Source: a virus (Duplodnaviria > Caudoviricetes). Taken from it: 53,826 bases of DNA. Positions 832 to 34,351 of this stretch are shown in pieces. The notes under the pieces are model-generated. The model did no database searches. It was not told the DNA's origin and was given only the letters and a program-made list of their open reading frames with translations. The stretch is from positions 1 through 53,826 of IMG/VR virus record IMGVR_UViG_3300044801_000056; one strand, written 5' to 3'. Positions within the stretch are counted from its first letter, which is position 1, and every line of letters starts with the position of its first letter. The position numbers and the translations under genes are program-made.

Positions 832-1356
832 ATGTCATTCCTCACTGAAATCGAAACCGAATTCGGCGTCATCAAAATCAATGTGAATACCGTGATCGGG
901 AAGGTTATTTCCGGCATCGAACTTGTTGCCAGCGAGGCAGATGCCCTGCTCAATTGGGCTATCAGCCAGTCCGCGACCATCCAGGCCGATCTTACCGCCG
1001 CGACACCGATCATTTCGGCTGTCACGGGTCTTTTGACGACTGCGGCGACGGGCAACCCGGCGTTGGGCGTGGCCGCCGCCGATGCCGTCAGCGGGATCAA
1101 TGTAGCGGTCACTGCGGCTGAGACTGCCGTCAAGGCGCTCAATGCCGCCAATGCTGCCCTCACGGCTTCCAAGGCTGCCGGAAATGGCAAGGTCGTTAAT
1201 GACACGCAAGCTGTGATGGCGGGCATCCAATCAGTCATCGGGGCGTCTCAGACCGTCGCTAACGTCAAAAGCGTTGCGCTGGCTGCCGCCGTGACGATCC
1301 AGGCCGCGATCAACGCCACGCCCGCAGCGCCGGTGCCCGCGTCAGTCGTCCAATAA
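832..1356 (+). CDS. Ala-rich hypothetical protein
   Basis: AGGA RBS upstream; 174-aa ORF in operon. Confidence 0.65.
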   Translation: MSFLTEIETEFGVIKINVNTVIGKVISGIELVASEADALLNWAISQSATIQADLTAATPIISAVTGLLTTAATGNPALGVAAADAVSGINVAVTAAETAVKALNAANAALTASKAAGNGKVVNDTQAVMAGIQSVIGASQTVANVKSVALAAAVTIQAAINATPAAPVPASVVQ

Positions 1357-1544
1357 TGTTCGCCGCCCTCGTTTACGGTGTCATGTCAGCATGCACCATC
1401 CCGAATGGGGGCGGCGCCTGTGAGTTTCTGATGCAAGCTCACGGGCGTGCGCAATCGAAAGATTGCGGCACCCACGAACTCATCCGCGATGACGGCACGA
1501 CATTTCGGATTACGATTAACTGTAAACACTCCAAACCAGAATAA
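1356..1544 (+). CDS. Small Cys-containing hypothetical protein
   Basis: TAATG coupling with upstream ORF. Confidence 0.5.
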   Translation: MFAALVYGVMSACTIPNGGGACEFLMQAHGRAQSKDCGTHELIRDDGTTFRITINCKHSKPE

Positions 1545-1547
1545 GGC

Positions 1548-1925
1548 TTGACTAGCATGGACCTCACATCTGCGGTTGGATTTGCAACCATAGCTTTGGC
1601 ATTCGGAGCCATACTTGGTCATGCTTTTGCCGCTGGTGGCAAGAACGAGTCTATCAAAAAGAACACTGCGGAAATTGAGGCACATAAGATCGAGGCAAAA
1701 GCTCGCTGGGAAACAACGGTAGCTGAGTTTAAGGAAATTAGAAAAGAGCATATGAATTTTGAACTCATGGTGACGAGAGATTATGTGAAGAATGAAGATC
1801 TTGAAGCAACGGAGTCTCGTCTTATTACTTTGAATTCAAATACTCTTAGTCTGCTTAAAGAAATGTCCGGGAAGGTTGATCAGCTTCTTGGATGGGCTAG
1901 GAAGGCTGACGTAGACCATCATTGA
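1548..1925 (+). CDS. TM plus coiled-coil protein (lysis-region type)
   Basis: N-terminal TM helix followed by a heptad-like region; ATG at 1557 is an alternative start. Confidence 0.55.
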   Translation: MTSMDLTSAVGFATIALAFGAILGHAFAAGGKNESIKKNTAEIEAHKIEAKARWETTVAEFKEIRKEHMNFELMVTRDYVKNEDLEATESRLITLNSNTLSLLKEMSGKVDQLLGWARKADVDHH

Positions 1926-1974
1926 TCTAGATCAAGATGACCATACAATTCTATGATCAAAAGGATAAGGTCAT

Positions 1975-3399
1975 ATGGCAAATGGGTTTTCTCGCGACGA
2001 TGCTGCACGCACGATAGAAGCAATCATTCAAGCCGAATCCGAAGGATACCCACGAAAGTCAACGAAACCATTTGAGAAAAGTTCCCTTACTCGCGCGGCA
2101 GAGATATTAGGTGTTAATTTTAGTACAATGCGATCACGATGTAAGCCAAACGGTGCTCTTGCAAATCTTGGTTTCACGCTCCCCGATGAAATCGTAAAGC
2201 CCAAAGCTCCTGATTATGCTACATATTTCGAGGAAGCAAAAACACGAGCTATAGAACCGAAACCTATACCTCTAGCCGATCCCATAGATGATTTTGTTGA
2301 TCCAAAAATAAATCCAATCGCATCTCCCATTATTCTGTTAAAAGACACTTCCCTAACGCCTGCTGAACGCCGGGACGCTGAATTCTGGCGGAAGCGATAT
2401 GAGAGCGAGCGCAAAGGAAAGCTAGACGTAGAGCATCTTCTAAATGAGGTTAGTGGCGTCGTCGGGCAGCGTGTAGTCCCTCCGCAATGGTTGATGCCAA
2501 GCATTGGTGGCCCGAAGAAACGATCGGTTATCGGTCTTCTCCTAACTGATTTGCATGTTGGAGAGGTCGTCGACCCTGACGAAATTAGCGGTCTCAATGC
2601 CTATAACCCTGAGATTTTCCAGCAACGCATACGCCGGTACATCATGGCCGCTTGTGAGGTTGGGGTTAGATGGAGTTCAGATTGTCAAAATCAAGGCGCA
2701 TTTGTCGTCATTGGCGGGGATTTGATCTCTGGTGATATCCATGATGAATTGAGGATGACGAATGCCCTCACGGCTCATGAACAAGCTCTCCTGGCGGCTC
2801 AAGAGCTAACCGCCGGTCTAAAGCATGTTGCTGATACATATGGCCGGGTCCATGTGGTCTGTGTCGCCGGAAACCATGGCCGGACAACCGTAAAGCCTTC
2901 CCAAAAACAATATGCCCGTCTTTCGTATGATACGCTGACGACCAAGATGGTTGCTATGTCGCTTGCAGGAGACAAAAGGATTACGATCGATATCCCGAAT
3001 AGCCGAGATGCGATTGTGCCGATCTTTGGCCGGAATGTCTTTATCAACCACGGGGATGGCATGGGAACAGGCGGCGGTATGGGTTTCGCCGGGCCGATTC
3101 TCCCGATAGCTCGCGGATCGAAAAAAGTGGAGCTTCAGCAATTCCGCGCAAAACGGTCATTTGATCTTCTATTGCATGGTCACTACCATCATAGCGCCAA
3201 CCAGAATATGACGCTCTCAAATGGGAGCTTCCCGGCGTACACCGAATATGGCAACGGGCTCCGTATGGGTGTCGAACCTCCTCAGCAATGGCTTTTCCTA
3301 CTCCATGAGAGATGGTGGCTCCGGGAGCGTGCAGAAATACAACTCGATGAGCCGAGTTTTAAACCGCTTCCCCCATCGCAATCTCCATTCGCGCGATGA
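1975..3399 (+). CDS. Calcineurin-like metallophosphoesterase with N-terminal HTH-like segment
   Basis: Motifs TDLHVGE, GGDLISGDIH, GNHGR, NHGD, GHYH in canonical order. Confidence 0.85.
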   Translation: MANGFSRDDAARTIEAIIQAESEGYPRKSTKPFEKSSLTRAAEILGVNFSTMRSRCKPNGALANLGFTLPDEIVKPKAPDYATYFEEAKTRAIEPKPIPLADPIDDFVDPKINPIASPIILLKDTSLTPAERRDAEFWRKRYESERKGKLDVEHLLNEVSGVVGQRVVPPQWLMPSIGGPKKRSVIGLLLTDLHVGEVVDPDEISGLNAYNPEIFQQRIRRYIMAACEVGVRWSSDCQNQGAFVVIGGDLISGDIHDELRMTNALTAHEQALLAAQELTAGLKHVADTYGRVHVVCVAGNHGRTTVKPSQKQYARLSYDTLTTKMVAMSLAGDKRITIDIPNSRDAIVPIFGRNVFINHGDGMGTGGGMGFAGPILPIARGSKKVELQQFRAKRSFDLLLHGHYHHSANQNMTLSNGSFPAYTEYGNGLRMGVEPPQQWLFLLHERWWLRERAEIQLDEPSFKPLPPSQSPFAR

Positions 3400-3620
3400 G
3401 TTTCGCACGAGCCGATGCCGTTATGCTCGTGGTCTCTGGGGATGACCTTCAGCTCTTGGTGGTCTCCGAAGGTCAAATGAATTACTATGAGTTAACCACT
3501 TCGTCCGCCGCTGCATTGATGTCCGATGCCGCTCGGATTTGCGCCGGGCAGATTCTTCCACGATCCAAAATCTTAGGAGCATCCCATGCGAATAGGCCCA
3601 AGGATGATCAAGGCATTTAG
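3396..3620 (+). CDS. Hypothetical protein
   Basis: ATGA overlap with upstream stop. Confidence 0.5.
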   Translation: MSFARADAVMLVVSGDDLQLLVVSEGQMNYYELTTSSAAALMSDAARICAGQILPRSKILGASHANRPKDDQGI

Positions 3621-3828
3621 ATCCAAACATGACGCGGCGCTGTATAAAATCATGTTATGGTCGGCATCCTATGAAAATGCGAAAGACTGCGGGGAAATCG
3701 AAGAATGTGAGCAAGCATTACAGGAAATGGCTTTTATCGTTCTCTCGACGCGGAATGATTTTACAGTCTCAGAAGAGATCGAGATGATGGATAGTAAAAT
3801 AACAACCCTAAAACCACGAGGCGCTTGA
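3586..3828 (+). CDS. Hypothetical protein
   Basis: Fills the operon between coupled genes. Confidence 0.5.
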   Translation: MRIGPRMIKAFRSKHDAALYKIMLWSASYENAKDCGEIEECEQALQEMAFIVLSTRNDFTVSEEIEMMDSKITTLKPRGA

Positions 3829-29362: not shown

Positions 29363-29539
29363 TGCGCCTTGGCATTCTCTTCTCTCTCATGGTTTGGGCT
29401 TGGGTTGCCGTGGCGGTGAAAACATGGGTGTGGGCATGTCTCTGAAGCTCAATCTTGGCATCGTCACGGCCGTCGCTAATGGTGGCGACATGACAATTGC
29501 GTTCAAATGATTTAACATAACGGGCGATATGATGGTAGT

Positions 29540-32167
29540 TTGGAAGTGAATGTAAATGATCTTTCGAAATATGAGGCTTATATCAATGGTCTCTCCCTGA
29601 AAGAAAAGGCAGAACTCGATAAGCTGATCGCTAAGGAACTTGCAGCCAAATGGCTTCCGGATCCGCGCAATCAGCCACAAGTGACGGCTTATCATTCGCA
29701 AGCCGACATGATGCTATACGGCGGGGCAGCGGGTAGTGGGAAGACTTCTCTTCTAGTCGGACTCGCGGTCACGGCTCATCATCGGACGGTCATCTTCCGG
29801 TCCAAGGCTGTCGATCTCAGAGGCGTCGAGGAATATCTCCTAGAGCTTATGGGACGCGACGGTTGGAATGGACAAGATAAAATCCTTCGCCGTCCCGAAT
29901 GTGTGATTGAACTCGGTCATCTTGAAAAGCCAGGGTCTGAACGGTCTTGGCAAGGTAGACCTCATGATTTGATCTGTGTGGGGCGCGGGACGCCGGTATT
30001 AATGGCTGATGGTTCTTACAAACCAGTAGAACAATTAGCCGTCGGAGAGATGGTCCAAACTTTGGAAGGTTCTCGCGCAATTCAGAAAACGTTTCCAGCT
30101 CAGTTTAAAAAAGCCGTCATTATCTCTACGGCTACACAATCTCAGGTTCAGTCCGTTGAACATGAGCTTTTGACAGACGCGGGTTGGGTATCCCACGGTA
30201 ACATTTTTTCACTTCGCCCTTTTTGGTTTTTCGAACCCATTGAACTCCCATTTTTGCGCAAAGTCGTAAAATGGTGCGTTCGGCCATATGAGCGGCTGCT
30301 TTACAGTCTCTCAGGCTTAAGTTTTCATCTGCGGCATATAACCGAACGATTGCTAATTCCTTTTCAGTGGGGGCATGCATCCGAACCGGAGATTTGCGCT
30401 TACGCGGGGCAAGAATATCTGGGAAATGATTTCGAAGACTTTGATGGTTCAGACCAAGAAATTCCGCAGCCTGCTTTATCGATCGTCCAACAAGAGCTTC
30501 TTCAAGCTGTTCAGCAGTTGGCCGACGTGGGGCATAATATTCTTCGTTTCGTTTTGCCATGTGATGGCGGCGGTGTTCTGAAAAAGTTAAAACTTCAAGG
30601 TTGGACAGATCGTTATTTGTCCGGCATTCATCGATATGGTGCACGCATTCTCGCTTTTTTGGGTCTTCACCTTGAACAAGCGGGCGTCCAGCTATATCTT
30701 CACCAATCATGCGATGTTGAGCAACCCAGCCCCATCGATTCTGAAGATGATGTCCAGGACAAAACTCGTAAACATAACCTCCATATAATGTCGTATGTCC
30801 ACCCTTATACGAAGGAAATTCGTCAAATATCGGAACGATCGATTCTTTATCCATCTTCATGTTCAGTCCATCAAATTGGAGTGGCAGAGTTATATGATTT
30901 GCAGGTTGAAGGAGCAAATCACTATATAACGAAGGGCGGATTTATCAATAAGAATTGCTTCGACGAGGGCGCCCAACTTAGTCGTGCAAAGGTGCAATTT
31001 GTTTTGGGTTGGTTGCGCTCAGTTGATCCAAATCAACGGCGTCGAGTGGTGATTGCATCGAACCCGCCAACAGGCGGTGAAGGTGAATGGCTGATTGAGT
31101 GGTTCGCGCCTTGGCTCGATCCGCAGTTTCCTAATCCCGCGAAATCAGGGGAATTGCGCTGGGCTGCAACGGCCCCTGATCTTGAAGGAACAACGATCTG
31201 GTTAAAGGATGCAAGCCCGATAATTTTCACTGAAGGGCGCGAATACCGGATTGCGAACGAAGAAGATGCCAAAGGAGGCAATCTTCACGTAATTCAGCCT
31301 ATGACCAGGACATTCATTCCGGGCCGGTTGGAAGACAATCCCTATCTCAGGGATACAGGTTATCGGGCCCAGCTTCAGGCTCTCCCGGAGCCGCTCCGAT
31401 CGCAAATGCTTCACGGCAACTTTCTTGCCGGGCGCCAGGATCATGAATGGCAAGTGATCCCGAGTGCATGGGTTAAGGAAGCTCAAGCGCGTTGGACAGA
31501 GCGGCCGCCGCAAGACGCGATTATGTCAGCTATCGGCGTCGATGTCGCGCAGGGCGGGGCTGATAATTCAGTTCTAGCGCCCCGCCATGGCCCTTGGTAT
31601 GCGCCATTGATTGTTGAGCCTGGCGTTAAAACGCCGCGCCCCAGCGACGTTGCGGCGCTCGTGGTGAGATATCGCCGGAACGCAGCTGCGGTTGTCGTGG
31701 ACGTTGGCGGTGGTTATGGTGGCGGTGTCAAGGAACGCCTTGAAGAGAATGAAATCACGGTCCGGCCTTTCAATGGGGCGGGCGAATCTCACGCTAGGAC
31801 TGCTGATAAGCAGCTTCCCTTTGCAAACAAGCGCGCGGAAGCGCATTGGCGGTTTCGGGAGGCATTGGACCCGGATCAAGAAAACGGGTCTAGCATCGCG
31901 CTTCCAAATGATCCTCAATTGTTTTCTGACTTGACTTCAATCCGCTGGAAGTTGACAAGCCAGGGGATTCAAATCGAGAGCAAGGAAGATTTGAAAAAGG
32001 CCGAGCGCTTAGGCCGGTCACCCGATAAGGGTGATGCGGTTATCATGGCATGGTCTGAAGGTGAAAAAGCGATTGTCGCCAATATCCGGCGGAAATCGAA
32101 AAGCAATTCTCTGCCGACAATGCCAACGATCGGCGTCGGATCTGGAACCGGATGGATGGGTCATTAG
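29540..32167 (+). CDS. terL: Terminase large subunit containing an intein
   Basis: Walker A YGGAAGSGKT; Walker B DLI|CFDE split by the intein; ASNP; nuclease GVDVA...SPDKGDA. Confidence 0.95.
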   Translation: MEVNVNDLSKYEAYINGLSLKEKAELDKLIAKELAAKWLPDPRNQPQVTAYHSQADMMLYGGAAGSGKTSLLVGLAVTAHHRTVIFRSKAVDLRGVEEYLLELMGRDGWNGQDKILRRPECVIELGHLEKPGSERSWQGRPHDLICVGRGTPVLMADGSYKPVEQLAVGEMVQTLEGSRAIQKTFPAQFKKAVIISTATQSQVQSVEHELLTDAGWVSHGNIFSLRPFWFFEPIELPFLRKVVKWCVRPYERLLYSLSGLSFHLRHITERLLIPFQWGHASEPEICAYAGQEYLGNDFEDFDGSDQEIPQPALSIVQQELLQAVQQLADVGHNILRFVLPCDGGGVLKKLKLQGWTDRYLSGIHRYGARILAFLGLHLEQAGVQLYLHQSCDVEQPSPIDSEDDVQDKTRKHNLHIMSYVHPYTKEIRQISERSILYPSSCSVHQIGVAELYDLQVEGANHYITKGGFINKNCFDEGAQLSRAKVQFVLGWLRSVDPNQRRRVVIASNPPTGGEGEWLIEWFAPWLDPQFPNPAKSGELRWAATAPDLEGTTIWLKDASPIIFTEGREYRIANEEDAKGGNLHVIQPMTRTFIPGRLEDNPYLRDTGYRAQLQALPEPLRSQMLHGNFLAGRQDHEWQVIPSAWVKEAQARWTERPPQDAIMSAIGVDVAQGGADNSVLAPRHGPWYAPLIVEPGVKTPRPSDVAALVVRYRRNAAAVVVDVGGGYGGGVKERLEENEITVRPFNGAGESHARTADKQLPFANKRAEAHWRFREALDPDQENGSSIALPNDPQLFSDLTSIRWKLTSQGIQIESKEDLKKAERLGRSPDKGDAVIMAWSEGEKAIVANIRRKSKSNSLPTMPTIGVGSGTGWMGH
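30132..30860 (-). CDS. HNH homing endonuclease encoded antisense within the intein
   Basis: GYVYEFCPGH...WVAQHR...GRPL...VHHIDECRTNNDLSNLEVL...EHRRHH plus C-terminal HTH-like segments; ATG at 30860 or 30854. Confidence 0.85.
   Translation of the reverse strand: MKMDKESIVPIFDEFPSYKGGHTTLYGGYVYEFCPGHHLQNRWGWVAQHRMIGEDIAGRPLVQGEDPKKRECVHHIDECRTNNDLSNLEVLTFSEHRRHHMAKRNEEYYAPRRPTAEQLEEALVGRSIKQAAEFLGLNHQSLRNHFPDILAPRKRKSPVRMHAPTEKELAIVRLYAADENLSLRDCKAAAHMAERTILRLCAKMGVQWVRKTKKGEVKKCYRGIPNPRLSKAHVQRTEPEIV
30889..30917 (-). promoter_or_regulatory. Putative sigma70 promoter for the antisense HNH gene
   Basis: Minus strand TTGCTC-N17-TATAAC, about 30 nt upstream of ATG 30860. Confidence 0.55.
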
Positions 32168-32173
32168 TCGCTG

Positions 32174-34351
32174 ATGGAAAGCTCTCCTACAGATGATCTC
32201 TCCGGCCTCAAGGGCGATGAAAGAATTCTTCAGCAGGCCCGTATCCGCTTTCGGCATTGCGTCGAATGGCGAAGTAAGGCAGATCAATGGTGGCTTGAAG
32301 ATGTCCGGTTTGCTAATGCGGACGCCCGCAACCATGATCAATGGCCAGACGATACCTGGCAAGAGCGAGACGACGATAATAGGCCTTGCCTGACAATCAA
32401 TAAGGCCCGTGTCCACAATAACATCATCATCAATGAATCGCTTCAGAATAAATCCTCGATCAAAGTAAGGCCAACGGGCGGCATCGCGACTTACGAGAGC
32501 GCGCAGGCCATTCAATCGATGATCCGGCGGATTGAGTATATCTCGAAATCGGACAGCGTTTACGAAAAGGCCATCCGGGACCAAGTAGACGGCGGATTAG
32601 GATTCGTTTTTCTAGAAACGAAGTATGTCAACAATCGCACGATGGATCAGGACATCTATCTGAAGAAATGCAAGAACCCGCTTTGCGTCTATATCGACCC
32701 CGATGCAAGCGATAGTGATGGTCTTGACGCGGCATTCGGGTTTGTTTTCGAGAGCATGTCGAAAGAAAAGTTCGATGTTCGCTATCCAAAGTTCAAAAAC
32801 CGGGTTGGTAAATCGACGCTTGGGAACGATGAATCATGGCTTATGGACGATATGGTCCAGGTTGCCATGTACTACACCAAGGAACAGAAAAAGGACACGT
32901 TTGTAACCTTCGTCGATCCTGACACTGAGGAACGCATCGATAGTCTAATGAGTGAGCTAAAGGCCGATTCTGGCAAGTTCATTTATGATCAGCTCATGGC
33001 AGATATCAAGAACGGCGTGATCGATGGTCAAACTCGCGAAGTTGTGACAGATAATGTAAAATGGTATCATATTGCTGGCGATTACATCATGGACCGGGGA
33101 GATTGGCCGGGCGCCTTTATCCCAATCATCCGGTGTGTGGGGATCGAGACGATTATCGAAGGCCAGTACGATTGCAAGGGTCATACGAGGGCATTGATCG
33201 ACGCGCAGCGAATGCTGAATTATAATGCTTCTGGCGCCGTCGAATATGGTGCCCTTCAAAGCAAATCGCCTTATATTGGACCCGCCCGCGCTTTCGAAGG
33301 GCAAGAACAATGGAAAGACGCGAATCGTAAGAACTACGCCTTCTTGCAATATAATGACATCGATGAAGAGGCGAACGATCCACAAATTTCGATGATCCAA
33401 AAGCCGGAGCGCGCGCAACCGCCGACTTCGGCTCCAATCTATATGCAGGGCATGCAAGACGCCGAACGTCAGATGATGATGTGTTCAGGCCAATACCAGG
33501 CCCAGCTCGGGGAGGATGATAAGCAGTCGGCGTCTTCCGGCCGTGCGATCAATGAAAGACAACGGCAGAGCGATACGGCGACATATCATTTCGTCGAGCA
33601 TCAAGCTGATATGCTGCGAGGAATTGGCGTCCAGCTCTTGGATTTGATCCCGAAGATTTATGATACTGAGCGCATGTTGCATGTGCTTGGCGAGGATGGC
33701 ACCCGGAAATGGATACAGATCGCGCCAGATCAAAAAGAACCCTATATCGAGCTGAAAAAGGAACAAGAAGAGGCCGCAATTATTTCCATTAATCCTCGGG
33801 TTGGGGAATATGATTGCATGTCGGATTCGGGTCCGAACTATGCAACGCAGCGGCAAGAGGCGTGGAATGCGATCTCGATCATCTTGCAACAGAATATGCA
33901 GCTTGCGGGGACGATCGGCGATCTTCTCTTTAAGTTTGGTGATTTTCCCGGATCTGACGAAATCATGGAACGGTTGAAGAAAGAGATTCAGGCGACGAAG
34001 CCTTATCTCTTCGACGACAACCGCGAACCGCAGATGATGGCTCTGCAACAGCAAATGCAGCGATTGACCTCTCTCAATTCCGAGCTGATGCAGAAGTTGG
34101 CATTGAAGGAAATCGCGCTTAAAGGAAAAGACGAGAAGCGAGATATCGAGGCTAGCCGGGCCGATACTGACCGGCTTAAATTGACTTTGGACTTCTTGAC
34201 AAAAACGATGCTTTCGGAAAAAGATCGTGCTATGTTACAGCATGAACTGATGAAAGCATCCCATGATACGACGATGCAAATGATCGTGGATTCGAATAAA
34301 TCTGACCTATCAATGCAAAGTGGACCCCAGGATATTCCGCCGTCGGCATAA
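32174..34351 (+). CDS. Portal protein (P22 gp1-like)
   Basis: DQW...RPCLTINK, DAQRMLNY, SGRAI.ERQRQ, GEYD...GPNYATQRQEA; follows terL. Confidence 0.9.
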   Translation: MESSPTDDLSGLKGDERILQQARIRFRHCVEWRSKADQWWLEDVRFANADARNHDQWPDDTWQERDDDNRPCLTINKARVHNNIIINESLQNKSSIKVRPTGGIATYESAQAIQSMIRRIEYISKSDSVYEKAIRDQVDGGLGFVFLETKYVNNRTMDQDIYLKKCKNPLCVYIDPDASDSDGLDAAFGFVFESMSKEKFDVRYPKFKNRVGKSTLGNDESWLMDDMVQVAMYYTKEQKKDTFVTFVDPDTEERIDSLMSELKADSGKFIYDQLMADIKNGVIDGQTREVVTDNVKWYHIAGDYIMDRGDWPGAFIPIIRCVGIETIIEGQYDCKGHTRALIDAQRMLNYNASGAVEYGALQSKSPYIGPARAFEGQEQWKDANRKNYAFLQYNDIDEEANDPQISMIQKPERAQPPTSAPIYMQGMQDAERQMMMCSGQYQAQLGEDDKQSASSGRAINERQRQSDTATYHFVEHQADMLRGIGVQLLDLIPKIYDTERMLHVLGEDGTRKWIQIAPDQKEPYIELKKEQEEAAIISINPRVGEYDCMSDSGPNYATQRQEAWNAISIILQQNMQLAGTIGDLLFKFGDFPGSDEIMERLKKEIQATKPYLFDDNREPQMMALQQQMQRLTSLNSELMQKLALKEIALKGKDEKRDIEASRADTDRLKLTLDFLTKTMLSEKDRAMLQHELMKASHDTTMQMIVDSNKSDLSMQSGPQDIPPSA

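Follow-up and report, generated by a model that had tools for sequence, protein, structure and literature searches.

A phage terminase intein with an HNH endonuclease gene on its antisense strand

The terL locus and its intein

The stretch of DNA analysed here, referred to below as the window, is the whole of the viral record IMGVR_UViG_3300044801_000056 (Caudoviricetes), which is 53,826 bases long and rated 91% complete. Its gene for the large subunit of the terminase, terL, is interrupted by an intein, and the strand opposite the intein carries a gene for an HNH endonuclease. On the plus strand, the locus is organised as follows (aa, amino acids; ORF, open reading frame):

29540-32167, plus strand: terL ORF, 875 aa, with a PHROG terminase large subunit match
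29540-29974, plus strand: N-extein of terL (145 aa), containing Walker A and the initial half of Walker B (..HDLI)
29720-29746, plus strand: Walker A, GGAAGSGKT, residues 61-69, in the N-extein
29975-30955, plus strand: class-1-type intein of 327 aa, from Cys1 to the terminal Asn (residues 146-472 of terL), followed by Cys+1
29975-30190, plus strand: N-terminal splicing module, with block A CVGRGTPVLMADG and the block B region QSQVQSVEHELLTDAGWV, the latter at 30137-30190
30875-30955, plus strand: C-terminal splicing blocks F/G IGVAELYDLQVEGANHYITKGGFINKN, under sense-type selection and conserved across loci
30956-32167, plus strand: C-extein of terL, 403 aa plus stop, with Cys+1 and then FDE, the remainder of Walker B

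The ORF has the features of a large terminase subunit, namely homology to TerL families, a Walker A motif and a Walker B motif that reads ..DLI/CFDE (here and below, a slash marks a junction between extein and intein). It matches PHROG 979 at E 6.5e-33 as well as PHROG 2, the second terminase-family E value being 2.9e-24. It is also 42-45% identical to the TerL proteins of the Bordetella BPP-1, Limnohabitans and Caulobacter phages, and there the match is split in two pieces because the middle part of the window protein is absent from these phages. In intein-less relatives the insertion site is RPHDFIGFDEGAQL, with RPHDFIGFDE at the junction, while the window has RPHDLI/327-aa intein/CFDEGAQL. 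Since these relatives are uninterrupted at that point, the insert lies within the hhhhDE strand, which we take to be Walker B on the strength of the general ATPase motif of TerL proteins rather than of a tool annotation.

The intein runs from CVGRG to GGFINKN; Cys1 is encoded by 29975-29977 and the C-terminus, HYITKGGFINKN, is immediately followed by the Cys+1 of the C-extein. Residues C1, H63, W71 and N327 are invariant among 22 intein homologues, and the T/S-x-x-H motif of block B is present as S60-V-E-H63, position 60 being mostly S or T in the homologues. Among 28 rows compared, Cys occupies the +1 position in 26; of the other two, L027 has Ser, and L025 has Cys too but is devoid of block A. 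A profile made from the 22 homologues matches solved inteins over residues 1-71 (the gp41-1 intein at E 6.3e-6, and PI-SceI). The window's sense protein by itself matches Hint-type models only, over residues 1-62; the Hom_end_hint match (E 2e-5, 25.2 bits) is below the Pfam cut-off of 32.1, and 17 of the 22 homologues have a Pfam Hom_end_hint match. No PHROG family was matched by the sense intein protein, and no internal start and stop arrangement of the split-intein type was seen in terL.

As to the surroundings, nearly all the long ORFs from 12 kb to the end of the window are on the plus strand, and the portal gene comes next after terL, at 32174. The GC content is 43-48% over the intein versus 51-61% in the flanking parts of terL and the upstream genes; as a sign of foreign origin this dip is too weak, since it falls within the general GC variation of the window.

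The antisense HNH gene

The following features are on the other strand:

30860-30132, minus strand: HNH endonuclease gene, 242 aa plus stop, with HNH_3 and PHROG HNH matches; its start was set by homologues
30564-30641, minus strand: HNH catalytic motif HHIDECRTNNDLSNLEVLTFSEHRRH, with invariant catalytic residues
30216-30533, minus strand: putative DNA-binding half, with two helix-turn-helix (HTH)-like modules, from family-level Pfam matches
30135-30215, minus strand: C-terminal tail of the HNH protein, overprinted on intein block B; selection on its final portion is mainly that of the sense frame

The minus-strand ORF extends, as listed, from a TTG start at 30917 to 30132, and the homologues begin at the ATG at 30860. 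It is the sole long minus-strand ORF with a recognisable family match in its region of the plus-strand block. The window protein matches Pfam HNH_3 with 25.2 bits, for a cut-off of 24.8, and 16 PHROG families, 15 of which are HNH or intron-like endonucleases (best E 1e-17). In the family, HNH_3 was matched by all 38 members examined (best E 4.3e-11), and residues H74, H75, N83, N87 and H96 are invariant in these 38 sequences, the window copy included. HTH matches are also found at family level: HTH_23 in 21 of the 38, HTH_Tnp_ISL3 in 19, HTH_28 in 15 and NUMOD1 in 3. The window protein's own matches of this kind are weak (HTH_28 at E 0.16, NUMOD1 at E 0.21). Neither strand of the window intein gave a LAGLIDADG or Vsr match, and a sequence search of the PDB with the HNH profile detected no related solved structure at E < 0.1. 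With its HNH_3 core and HTH modules, its invariant catalytic residues and its free-standing relatives (see below), the protein looks like a homing enzyme.

A preliminary description of the locus, made from the sequence alone, had placed a 327-aa intein with Cys1, a terminal Asn and Cys+1 in Walker B of TerL, and an HNH gene at 30860-30132 opposite an open sense stretch lacking any endonuclease motif; the coordinates of the intein, the ATG and the HNH assignment all hold, and the sense stretch between blocks B and F contains no stop and no domain match. The overlap that it reported between the 3' end of the HNH gene and block B is also there: the stop codon (30132-30134) falls at about intein residues 53-54, so that about the final 10 to 20 codons of HNH lie over block B (S60-H63). 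Two other statements hold in part. The HTH-like C-terminal segments that it described are clear in the family and weak in the window protein. Of the two matches that it expected from a search of both strands with profile models, that of HNH_3 on the minus strand is above the cut-off, and that of Hint on the plus strand exists but stays, as Hom_end_hint, below it.

Two frames on one stretch

Across the intein there is no stop codon in the sense frame, versus 7 to 22 in each of the five other frames. When synonymous codons were permuted in the window's HNH ORF, the sense frame acquired 9.3 stops on average and not one of 5000 permutations was stop-free. To see how general this is, homologous loci were retrieved with the HNH alignment: 27 viral loci, 3 from genomes and 55 from metagenome contigs, i.e. 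85 loci, which reduce to 68 unique HNH cores. Those spanning at least 60% of the HNH protein, 51 in number, are called full-length. In all 51 unique full-length loci a TerL homologue spans the HNH gene on the opposite strand, and in all 51 the sense frame has no stop. In the 31 loci examined in detail the two genes stand in one and the same register, codon position 1 of HNH being opposite sense position 1; each of the 31 has zero sense stops, where 3.8 to 14.8 are expected, and zero was reached in at most 3 of 500 shuffles per locus. This shared register makes it impossible for an embedded HNH to have Phe followed by a codon that begins with A. Accordingly, Phe followed by I, M, T, N or K, the pairs that force a sense stop, was found for none of the 225 Phe residues of embedded HNH proteins and for 14 of 35 in 11 free-standing relatives.

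The two frames are not under the same selection. For 28 unique sequences, aligned codon by codon on the basis of HNH, diversity at positions 1, 2 and 3 of the HNH frame is 0.47, 0.41 and 0.67. Mean identity is 42% for the HNH protein versus 19% for the sense peptide, with HNH the higher in all 378 pairs of the 28 sequences. As an example, L096 and L098 are 94% identical as HNH proteins and 70% identical as sense peptides. For the 48 pairs with at least 60% HNH identity, the ratio of non-synonymous to synonymous rates (omega, by the NG86 method of Nei and Gojobori) ranges from 0.04 to 0.34 in the HNH frame, where the synonymous rate is finite, while the apparent omega of the sense frame is 1.75-3.8; this contrast holds for the central 150 or so codons.

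A sliding-window analysis of codon positions along the intein, in the sense frame and with 27 sequences, maps where the change of frame occurs. Residues 1-70 and 291-327 show a sense-type pattern in which the third position is the most variable (for residues 1-70, a variability of 0.65-0.71 at the third position versus 0.24-0.50 at position 2). In residues 81-270 the pattern is inverted, sense position 2, which is HNH position 3, being the most variable (0.61-0.73). The pattern of residues 271-290 is mixed, all three positions being about equally conserved. Two segments of the sense frame can thus be set apart:

30215-30784, plus strand: sense-frame linker, intein residues 81-270, read in translation and under no constraint other than that against stop codons
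30785-30844, plus strand: doubly constrained segment, where sense Y-x-HPYT-x-E-x-R is opposite the N-terminal FPSYKGG-x-T of HNH

In the second segment, the sense motif (30794-30823) shows no variation among 22 inteins and survives in mini-inteins without HNH, whereas FPSYKGG-x-T is invariant on the HNH side and is the point from which homology to the free-standing relatives starts; both constraints therefore seem to be real. There seem to be two short zones that are truly double-coded, one where the C-terminal tail of HNH meets block B and the other where the N-terminal motif of HNH meets the sense Y-x-HPYT motif.

Dual coding with frame-specific selection is what these computations show. They also show that selection as protein is limited to about 70 N-terminal and about 55 C-terminal residues of the intein, the Hint splicing module, and that in the 190 or so codons between the Hint halves it is the HNH frame that is under purifying selection, the sense frame being kept free of stops and no more. 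The preliminary description had proposed a dual-coding selfish element with the endonuclease as a separate gene on the opposite strand and a sense frame that needs only to stay open. This proposal is supported and generalises to the 51 full-length homologues, all of which conserve the antisense ORF opposite an open sense frame, and the comparison of omega between frames came out as it had predicted. The real domain in the linker that would have spoken against it was not found: no Pfam domain was detected in the sense linker of the 22 homologues scanned, and mini-inteins do without the linker.

Mini-inteins and decaying members

Mini-inteins of 145-181 aa, belonging to the same family and inserted at the same site, are present in six TerL clusters. 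They lack the equivalent of window residues 80 to 255 or so, which supports the view that the sense linker is dispensable for the intein. Three of them retain, in the sense frame, remnants of the 5' part of the HNH gene and hence look like deletion derivatives.

Other loci display partial damage. In the metagenome locus L119 (108-1625, minus strand; 1277-1612, plus strand) the catalytic core of HNH is deleted and the sense frame is still open. A single indel disrupts both frames in L114 (1380-2106), and the HNH ORF of L023 (3920-4987) has no ATG, GTG or TTG start. The junction of L025, ...GSPHDL/VATLEGPR..., leads into an intein without its first 27 or so residues, i.e. without Cys1 and block A, opposite an intact HNH ORF of 221 aa; either this allele is unable to splice or the assembly is faulty.

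Spread of the arrangement

At E <= 1e-30, the HNH family comprises 112 representatives of 50%-identity clusters. The arrangement reaches beyond one TerL family, as indicated by L132: there, an 841-aa ORF (1293-3815, minus strand) matching Terminase_6N and Hint_2 contains, wholly antisense within it, a 292-aa ORF (2363-3238, plus strand) matching HNH_3 and HTH_23. L133 has the same arrangement. About 11 partial relatives of HNH are free-standing, with stops on the opposite strand, which fits an origin of the antisense gene from a free-standing endonuclease. Single copies of the element are present in a provirus and in a phage record with terminal redundancy, each rated 100% complete, and also in a cyanobacterial chromosome of 6.4 Mb; no further family member was found elsewhere in the three genomes or records searched whole. 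The element is absent from cultured phage records, where the intein had no match at the DNA level and HNH had none with a coverage of at least 80%; plasmids gave distant partial HNH matches only.

The position of the insert relative to the Asp-Glu of Walker B shifts by 1 to 4 residues among TerL lineages. L010 and L029 read ..HDF/intein/CGFDE.., and the sequence after the intein is CYLGFDE in L016, CGIFFDE in L023 and SHLAVDE, with Ser at +1, in L027. A close TerL relative, L041 (1429-4230, plus strand), has no Walker B intein and carries a different one at Walker A (GGAAGGGK/ALYIK...), with in-frame LAGLIDADG-like motifs and, as first residue, an Ala that may denote a non-class-1 intein. Some TerL proteins have two inteins: P0002, P0013 and P0005 (about 1200-1240 aa), L017 (an ORF of 1234 aa) and L030 (an ORF of 1326 aa). 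Their upstream intein has an in-frame LAGLIDADG_3 or Hom_end domain (Pfam matches in P0002, P0013 and P0005) and their Walker B intein has the antisense HNH, so that the canonical and the antisense architectures coexist within one gene.

Patchy distribution and mobility

A search with the C-extein found 53 viral loci, up to 74% identical to the window, that value being reached by the intein-less L032. Those with an N-extein match read through the insertion site, and no HNH homologue was detected in any of the 53 in the roughly 3 kb that flank the C-extein match on each side. The window intein thus has close relatives without an intein and with an intact site, the sporadic distribution expected of a homing intein. 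In a second wetland metagenome, a contig of 151 nucleotides (nt) is identical to the N-extein at 29833-29976, up to 2 nt beyond the intein junction, and its last 7 letters depart from the window; it could derive from a near-identical terL that is intein-less or differently occupied, although its length does not allow a decision. A single contig covers the region with identical sequence, possibly from the same source sample.

A C-extein tree was built with 65 rows, 29 intein-bearing and 36 intein-less, after dropping rows that covered less than 300 aa, contained stops or were duplicates. The window is sister to an intein-less sequence, and is the lone intein-bearer in well-supported (starred) clades of 13 and of 29 rows. 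At least seven changes of state are needed over the tree, five of them forced by starred branches. Enforcing one intein-bearing clade made the tree 421 log-likelihood units worse, and the approximately unbiased (AU) test rejected it at p 9.6e-15. The distribution of the intein is thus patchy and the element a mobile one. In its exteins the window agrees with its intein-less clade except at two positions, -2 (Leu for Phe) and +1 (Cys for Gly), and these Leu and Cys residues match the 'HDLI/C' flank of other intein-bearing alleles; this looks like either a very short co-conversion tract or a necessary adaptation. In the HNH tree, the lineages nearest to the window's have support of 86-89 only, no branch being starred, and no donor can be named. 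Pairwise identities of HNH and exteins were also considered as proof of transfer; HNH is the more conserved in 226 of 276 pairs, but such values are ambiguous between transfer and differences in rate, which is why mobility is argued here from the tree and the AU test.

Candidate expression signals of the HNH gene

Two putative signals precede the HNH start:

30948-30921, minus strand: sigma70-like promoter candidate TTGATA-16 nt-TATAGT, with 10/12 matches; the -10 box ends 60 nt before the ATG
30867-30869, minus strand: GGA, a weak Shine-Dalgarno-like sequence located 6 nt upstream of the HNH ATG

The candidate -10 is opposite the His-Tyr-Ile codons of block F and the -35 is opposite Phe-Ile-Asn of block G (Phe-Ile/Val-Asn in homologues). 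A promoter-like sequence with a spacer of 16 nt and at least 9/12 matches was found within 130 nt upstream of the HNH start in 40 of 51 loci, versus 2.7% of 255 control windows; in two loci the consensus is matched in full, and in 44 of 51 the -10 box ends 54-60 nt before the HNH start. A Shine-Dalgarno core of at least 4 nt (AGGA, GGAG or GAGG) is present in 16 of 29 homologue rows, and GGA only in four, among them the window. No terminator-like site was found in 29500-31500, and the putative 5' leader of HNH shows no unusual fold (z 0.70). A search for RNA runs containing this phage found none. If the candidates do serve as start signals, the HNH gene may be expressed uncoupled from terminase translation, as the preliminary description proposed.

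Relation to known systems

Inteins with antisense LAGLIDADG and antisense VSR-like endonuclease genes have been described in actinobacteriophages, several of them in terminase (Gosselin, Arsenault and Gogarten, bioRxiv 10.1101/2025.01.02.630785), and the novelty implied by the preliminary description was therefore overstated. That preprint credits Gorbalenya 1998 and Gogarten 2002 with earlier cases of antisense LAGLIDADG, in Synechocystis dnaX and in a SpoVR-like gene of Chloroflexus, and argues that inteins are invaded by free-standing endonucleases; in its main text, HNH occurs in-frame only and the word 'promoter' does not occur. The element in the window resembles the inteins described there in being contiguous, with an endonuclease ORF on the opposite strand between the splicing blocks and an open sense frame, in having the large terminase subunit among its hosts, and in a distribution that suggests continuing invasion; the origin proposed there, a free-standing endonuclease invading an intein, fits here too. 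Unlike them, it has an HNH_3 endonuclease with HTH modules where theirs is LAGLIDADG or VSR-like (EDxHD), and its hosts are uncultured phages of Gram-negative and cyanobacterial lineages, not actinophages. Beyond what the main text of the preprint describes, we find the single register (31 loci), the 51 members without sense stops, the mapped switch of frame, the imprint on Phe and the promoter-like sequence in blocks F/G. No antisense HNH in an intein was found in the full-text literature, a search that did not cover subscription journals and the preprint's supplementary tables, which might list more types. By its architecture, the element is an intein of the rare antisense-endonuclease kind that differs in nuclease family and host range; the concept has been published for other nuclease families, and the HNH type is new.

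Three other systems share some of its traits. Inteins in Walker B of TerL (TerL1-e) are known in mycobacteriophages, where that of Gaia gp2 was seen to splice within a reporter (Kelley et al. 2016, PMC5050341). Like them, the present intein is in the ATPase domain of TerL, at or in Walker B; unlike the inteins whose cleavage was tested in that study, with their endonuclease in-frame, it has a separate antisense gene, and its TerL is of the BPP-1-like family. In fractured genes, a free-standing endonuclease gene, GIY-YIG or Vsr-like, lies between the halves of a split intein (Dassa et al. 2009, PMC2677866). There too the endonuclease slot of an intein is filled by a free-standing gene for a homing endonuclease, in support of a 'splicing first, endonuclease invades later' order of events, but those genes consist of two ORFs whose products splice in trans, while here the sense frame is continuous through the endonuclease gene. 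The ShiLan-type insertion is a hidden, out-of-frame HNH in a phage gene that encodes a DNA methylase (Arsenault et al. 2025, PMC11855218). Both it and the present HNH are nested in a stop-free host ORF and have a disjoint distribution that suggests homing; the ShiLan HNH shares the strand of its host gene, in a different frame, and its insertion has no splicing domain, whereas here the gene runs along the opposite strand with intein splicing blocks on either side.

As for the protein, its HNH core followed by small DNA-binding modules, HTH or NUMOD-type, is also the build of enzymes of the I-HmuI type. I-HmuI is a modular HNH homing endonuclease of phage origin and is encoded by an intron; the present HNH differs in being nested in an intein and in having no solved structure detectable by sequence.

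Interpretation and alternatives

We interpret the element, with a probability of about 0.8, as a mobile intein that uses both DNA strands, one for a splicing Hint module and the other for an HNH_3/HTH homing endonuclease gene. The terL mRNA must be translated without a break over the 327 intein codons, after which the two Hint halves would fold around a dispensable linker and splice, joining ...HDLI to CFDE... and thereby restoring Walker B. The HNH gene would be transcribed against the late operon, from its own start signals lying antisense within blocks F/G, and its product would nick or cut the intein-less terL of co-infecting relatives near the Walker B codons. Recombinational repair would then copy the intein together with HNH into the cut allele, and after fixation the HNH gene would decay by deletion, leaving mini-inteins.

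Several points weigh against this interpretation. Splicing, antisense transcription and cleavage are deduced from sequence. The penultimate residue of block G is Lys in the window and K, R, Q or S in the homologues in place of His; a His at this position is usual in inteins, but not universal. Some members look defective (L025 without block A, L023 without an HNH start, L114 with both frames broken). Identities of HNH and of the exteins are correlated (Spearman 0.68), hence much of the family history must be vertical or confined to clades. The nearest HNH to the window's is only 67% identical, so no recent donor was sampled. The sampling for the tree was not neutral either, since intein-less sequences were collected for their similarity to the window and intein-bearing ones through their HNH. 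Regarding expression, the window's Shine-Dalgarno-like sequence is weak (GGA only) and 9 of the 29 rows have none; within 2 kb, two promoter-like matches were found where shuffles predict 2.5; and a null model that preserves the amino acids (synonymous codons drawn from each locus's own usage) already gives 9.1/12 versus 9.54 observed (z 2.6). The amino-acid motif therefore carries most of the promoter signal, and a selected promoter is not demonstrated. That blocks F/G play a triple role, as part of the Hint protein, as a sigma70-type promoter for the antisense HNH and as a 60-nt leader of its mRNA, is accordingly only a tentative proposal, for which the odds are somewhat unfavourable; under it, the HYI and ...INKN residues would have been shaped by the need to drive the endonuclease early from the host RNA polymerase, independently of the late terL message.

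Some of the same facts could mean that HNH no longer homes and is an old, mostly vertical passenger, either decaying or kept for another job such as competition between phages or a nicking that aids packaging or recombination. The correlation with the exteins and the 67% ceiling would suit a passenger, as would the existence of whole clades of 14 and 12 intein-bearing TerLs, the single frame register, which implies one ancient origin, and the presence of decayed members and mini-inteins. We nevertheless hold it to be unlikely: HNH is under strong purifying selection (omega 0.04-0.34) with invariant catalytic residues, the window intein stands alone in a well-supported and otherwise intein-less clade, a single intein-bearing clade is rejected by the AU test, and full-length members reside without exception (51/51) inside TerL inteins, with none elsewhere in the three genomes or records searched whole. 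A function, rather than selfishness, could also explain why the gene is in terL, if HNH were an accessory nuclease of packaging comparable to those that act with the terminases of some cos phages; HNH proteins that aid terminases are indeed known in phages (PMC11855218). Yet none of the 53 closest TerL loci has a homologue of this HNH in the 3 kb or so to each side of the C-extein match, which means that the packaging machine works without it, and the mini-intein relatives have lost it. Moreover, HNH proteins associated with terminases are typically small, whereas this one, with 242 aa and an HNH_3 core plus HTH modules, is built as a modular homing endonuclease. A packaging role thus seems very improbable.

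Even less room is left for the idea that the intein does not splice or that terL is not read through, be it a defective gene, a metagenomic relic, a misassembly or the halves of a split gene. The missing penultimate His, the metagenomic origin of a window rated 91% complete and the possible common source of the sole contig spanning the region would all be in keeping with it. But the sense frame is open in every unique full-length locus where 4-15 stops are expected, which only makes sense if it is translated; the splicing blocks are under sense-type purifying selection; the element is present in records with a completeness rating of 100%, of which one has terminal repeats; and the start and stop arrangement typical of split inteins is lacking. 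Lastly, long antisense ORFs do arise by chance opposite coding sequences, and the minus-strand ORF might be one of these, facing a real but unrecognised endonuclease domain in the sense frame. This is already contradicted, and we regard its probability as negligible: the ORF matches HNH_3 above the Pfam cut-off as well as 15 PHROG endonuclease families, it has 112 cluster representatives at E <= 1e-30, codon-position pattern and omega place selection in the minus frame and not in the sense frame, and the sense linker matches nothing.

Significance

Gene callers report either the 875-aa TerL or the HNH at such loci and misread the other one, and surveys of inteins limited to in-frame endonuclease domains would score the family as endonuclease-less. 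For phages, the element is a clean case of a long antisense gene overlap, with a mapped switch of frame and a measurable imprint on the embedded protein. If blocks F/G do double as a promoter, this would account for the lasting fixation of one frame register after a single founding invasion. Every stage of the homing cycle can be seen in the family, as empty sites, intact elements and deletion derivatives. Finally, the toleration of about 190 effectively unselected codons between the Hint halves in an essential gene, by 51 independent variants, is a natural experiment, and such a tolerated linker is of use both in engineering inteins and to the 'splicing first, endonuclease later' model of how inteins arose.

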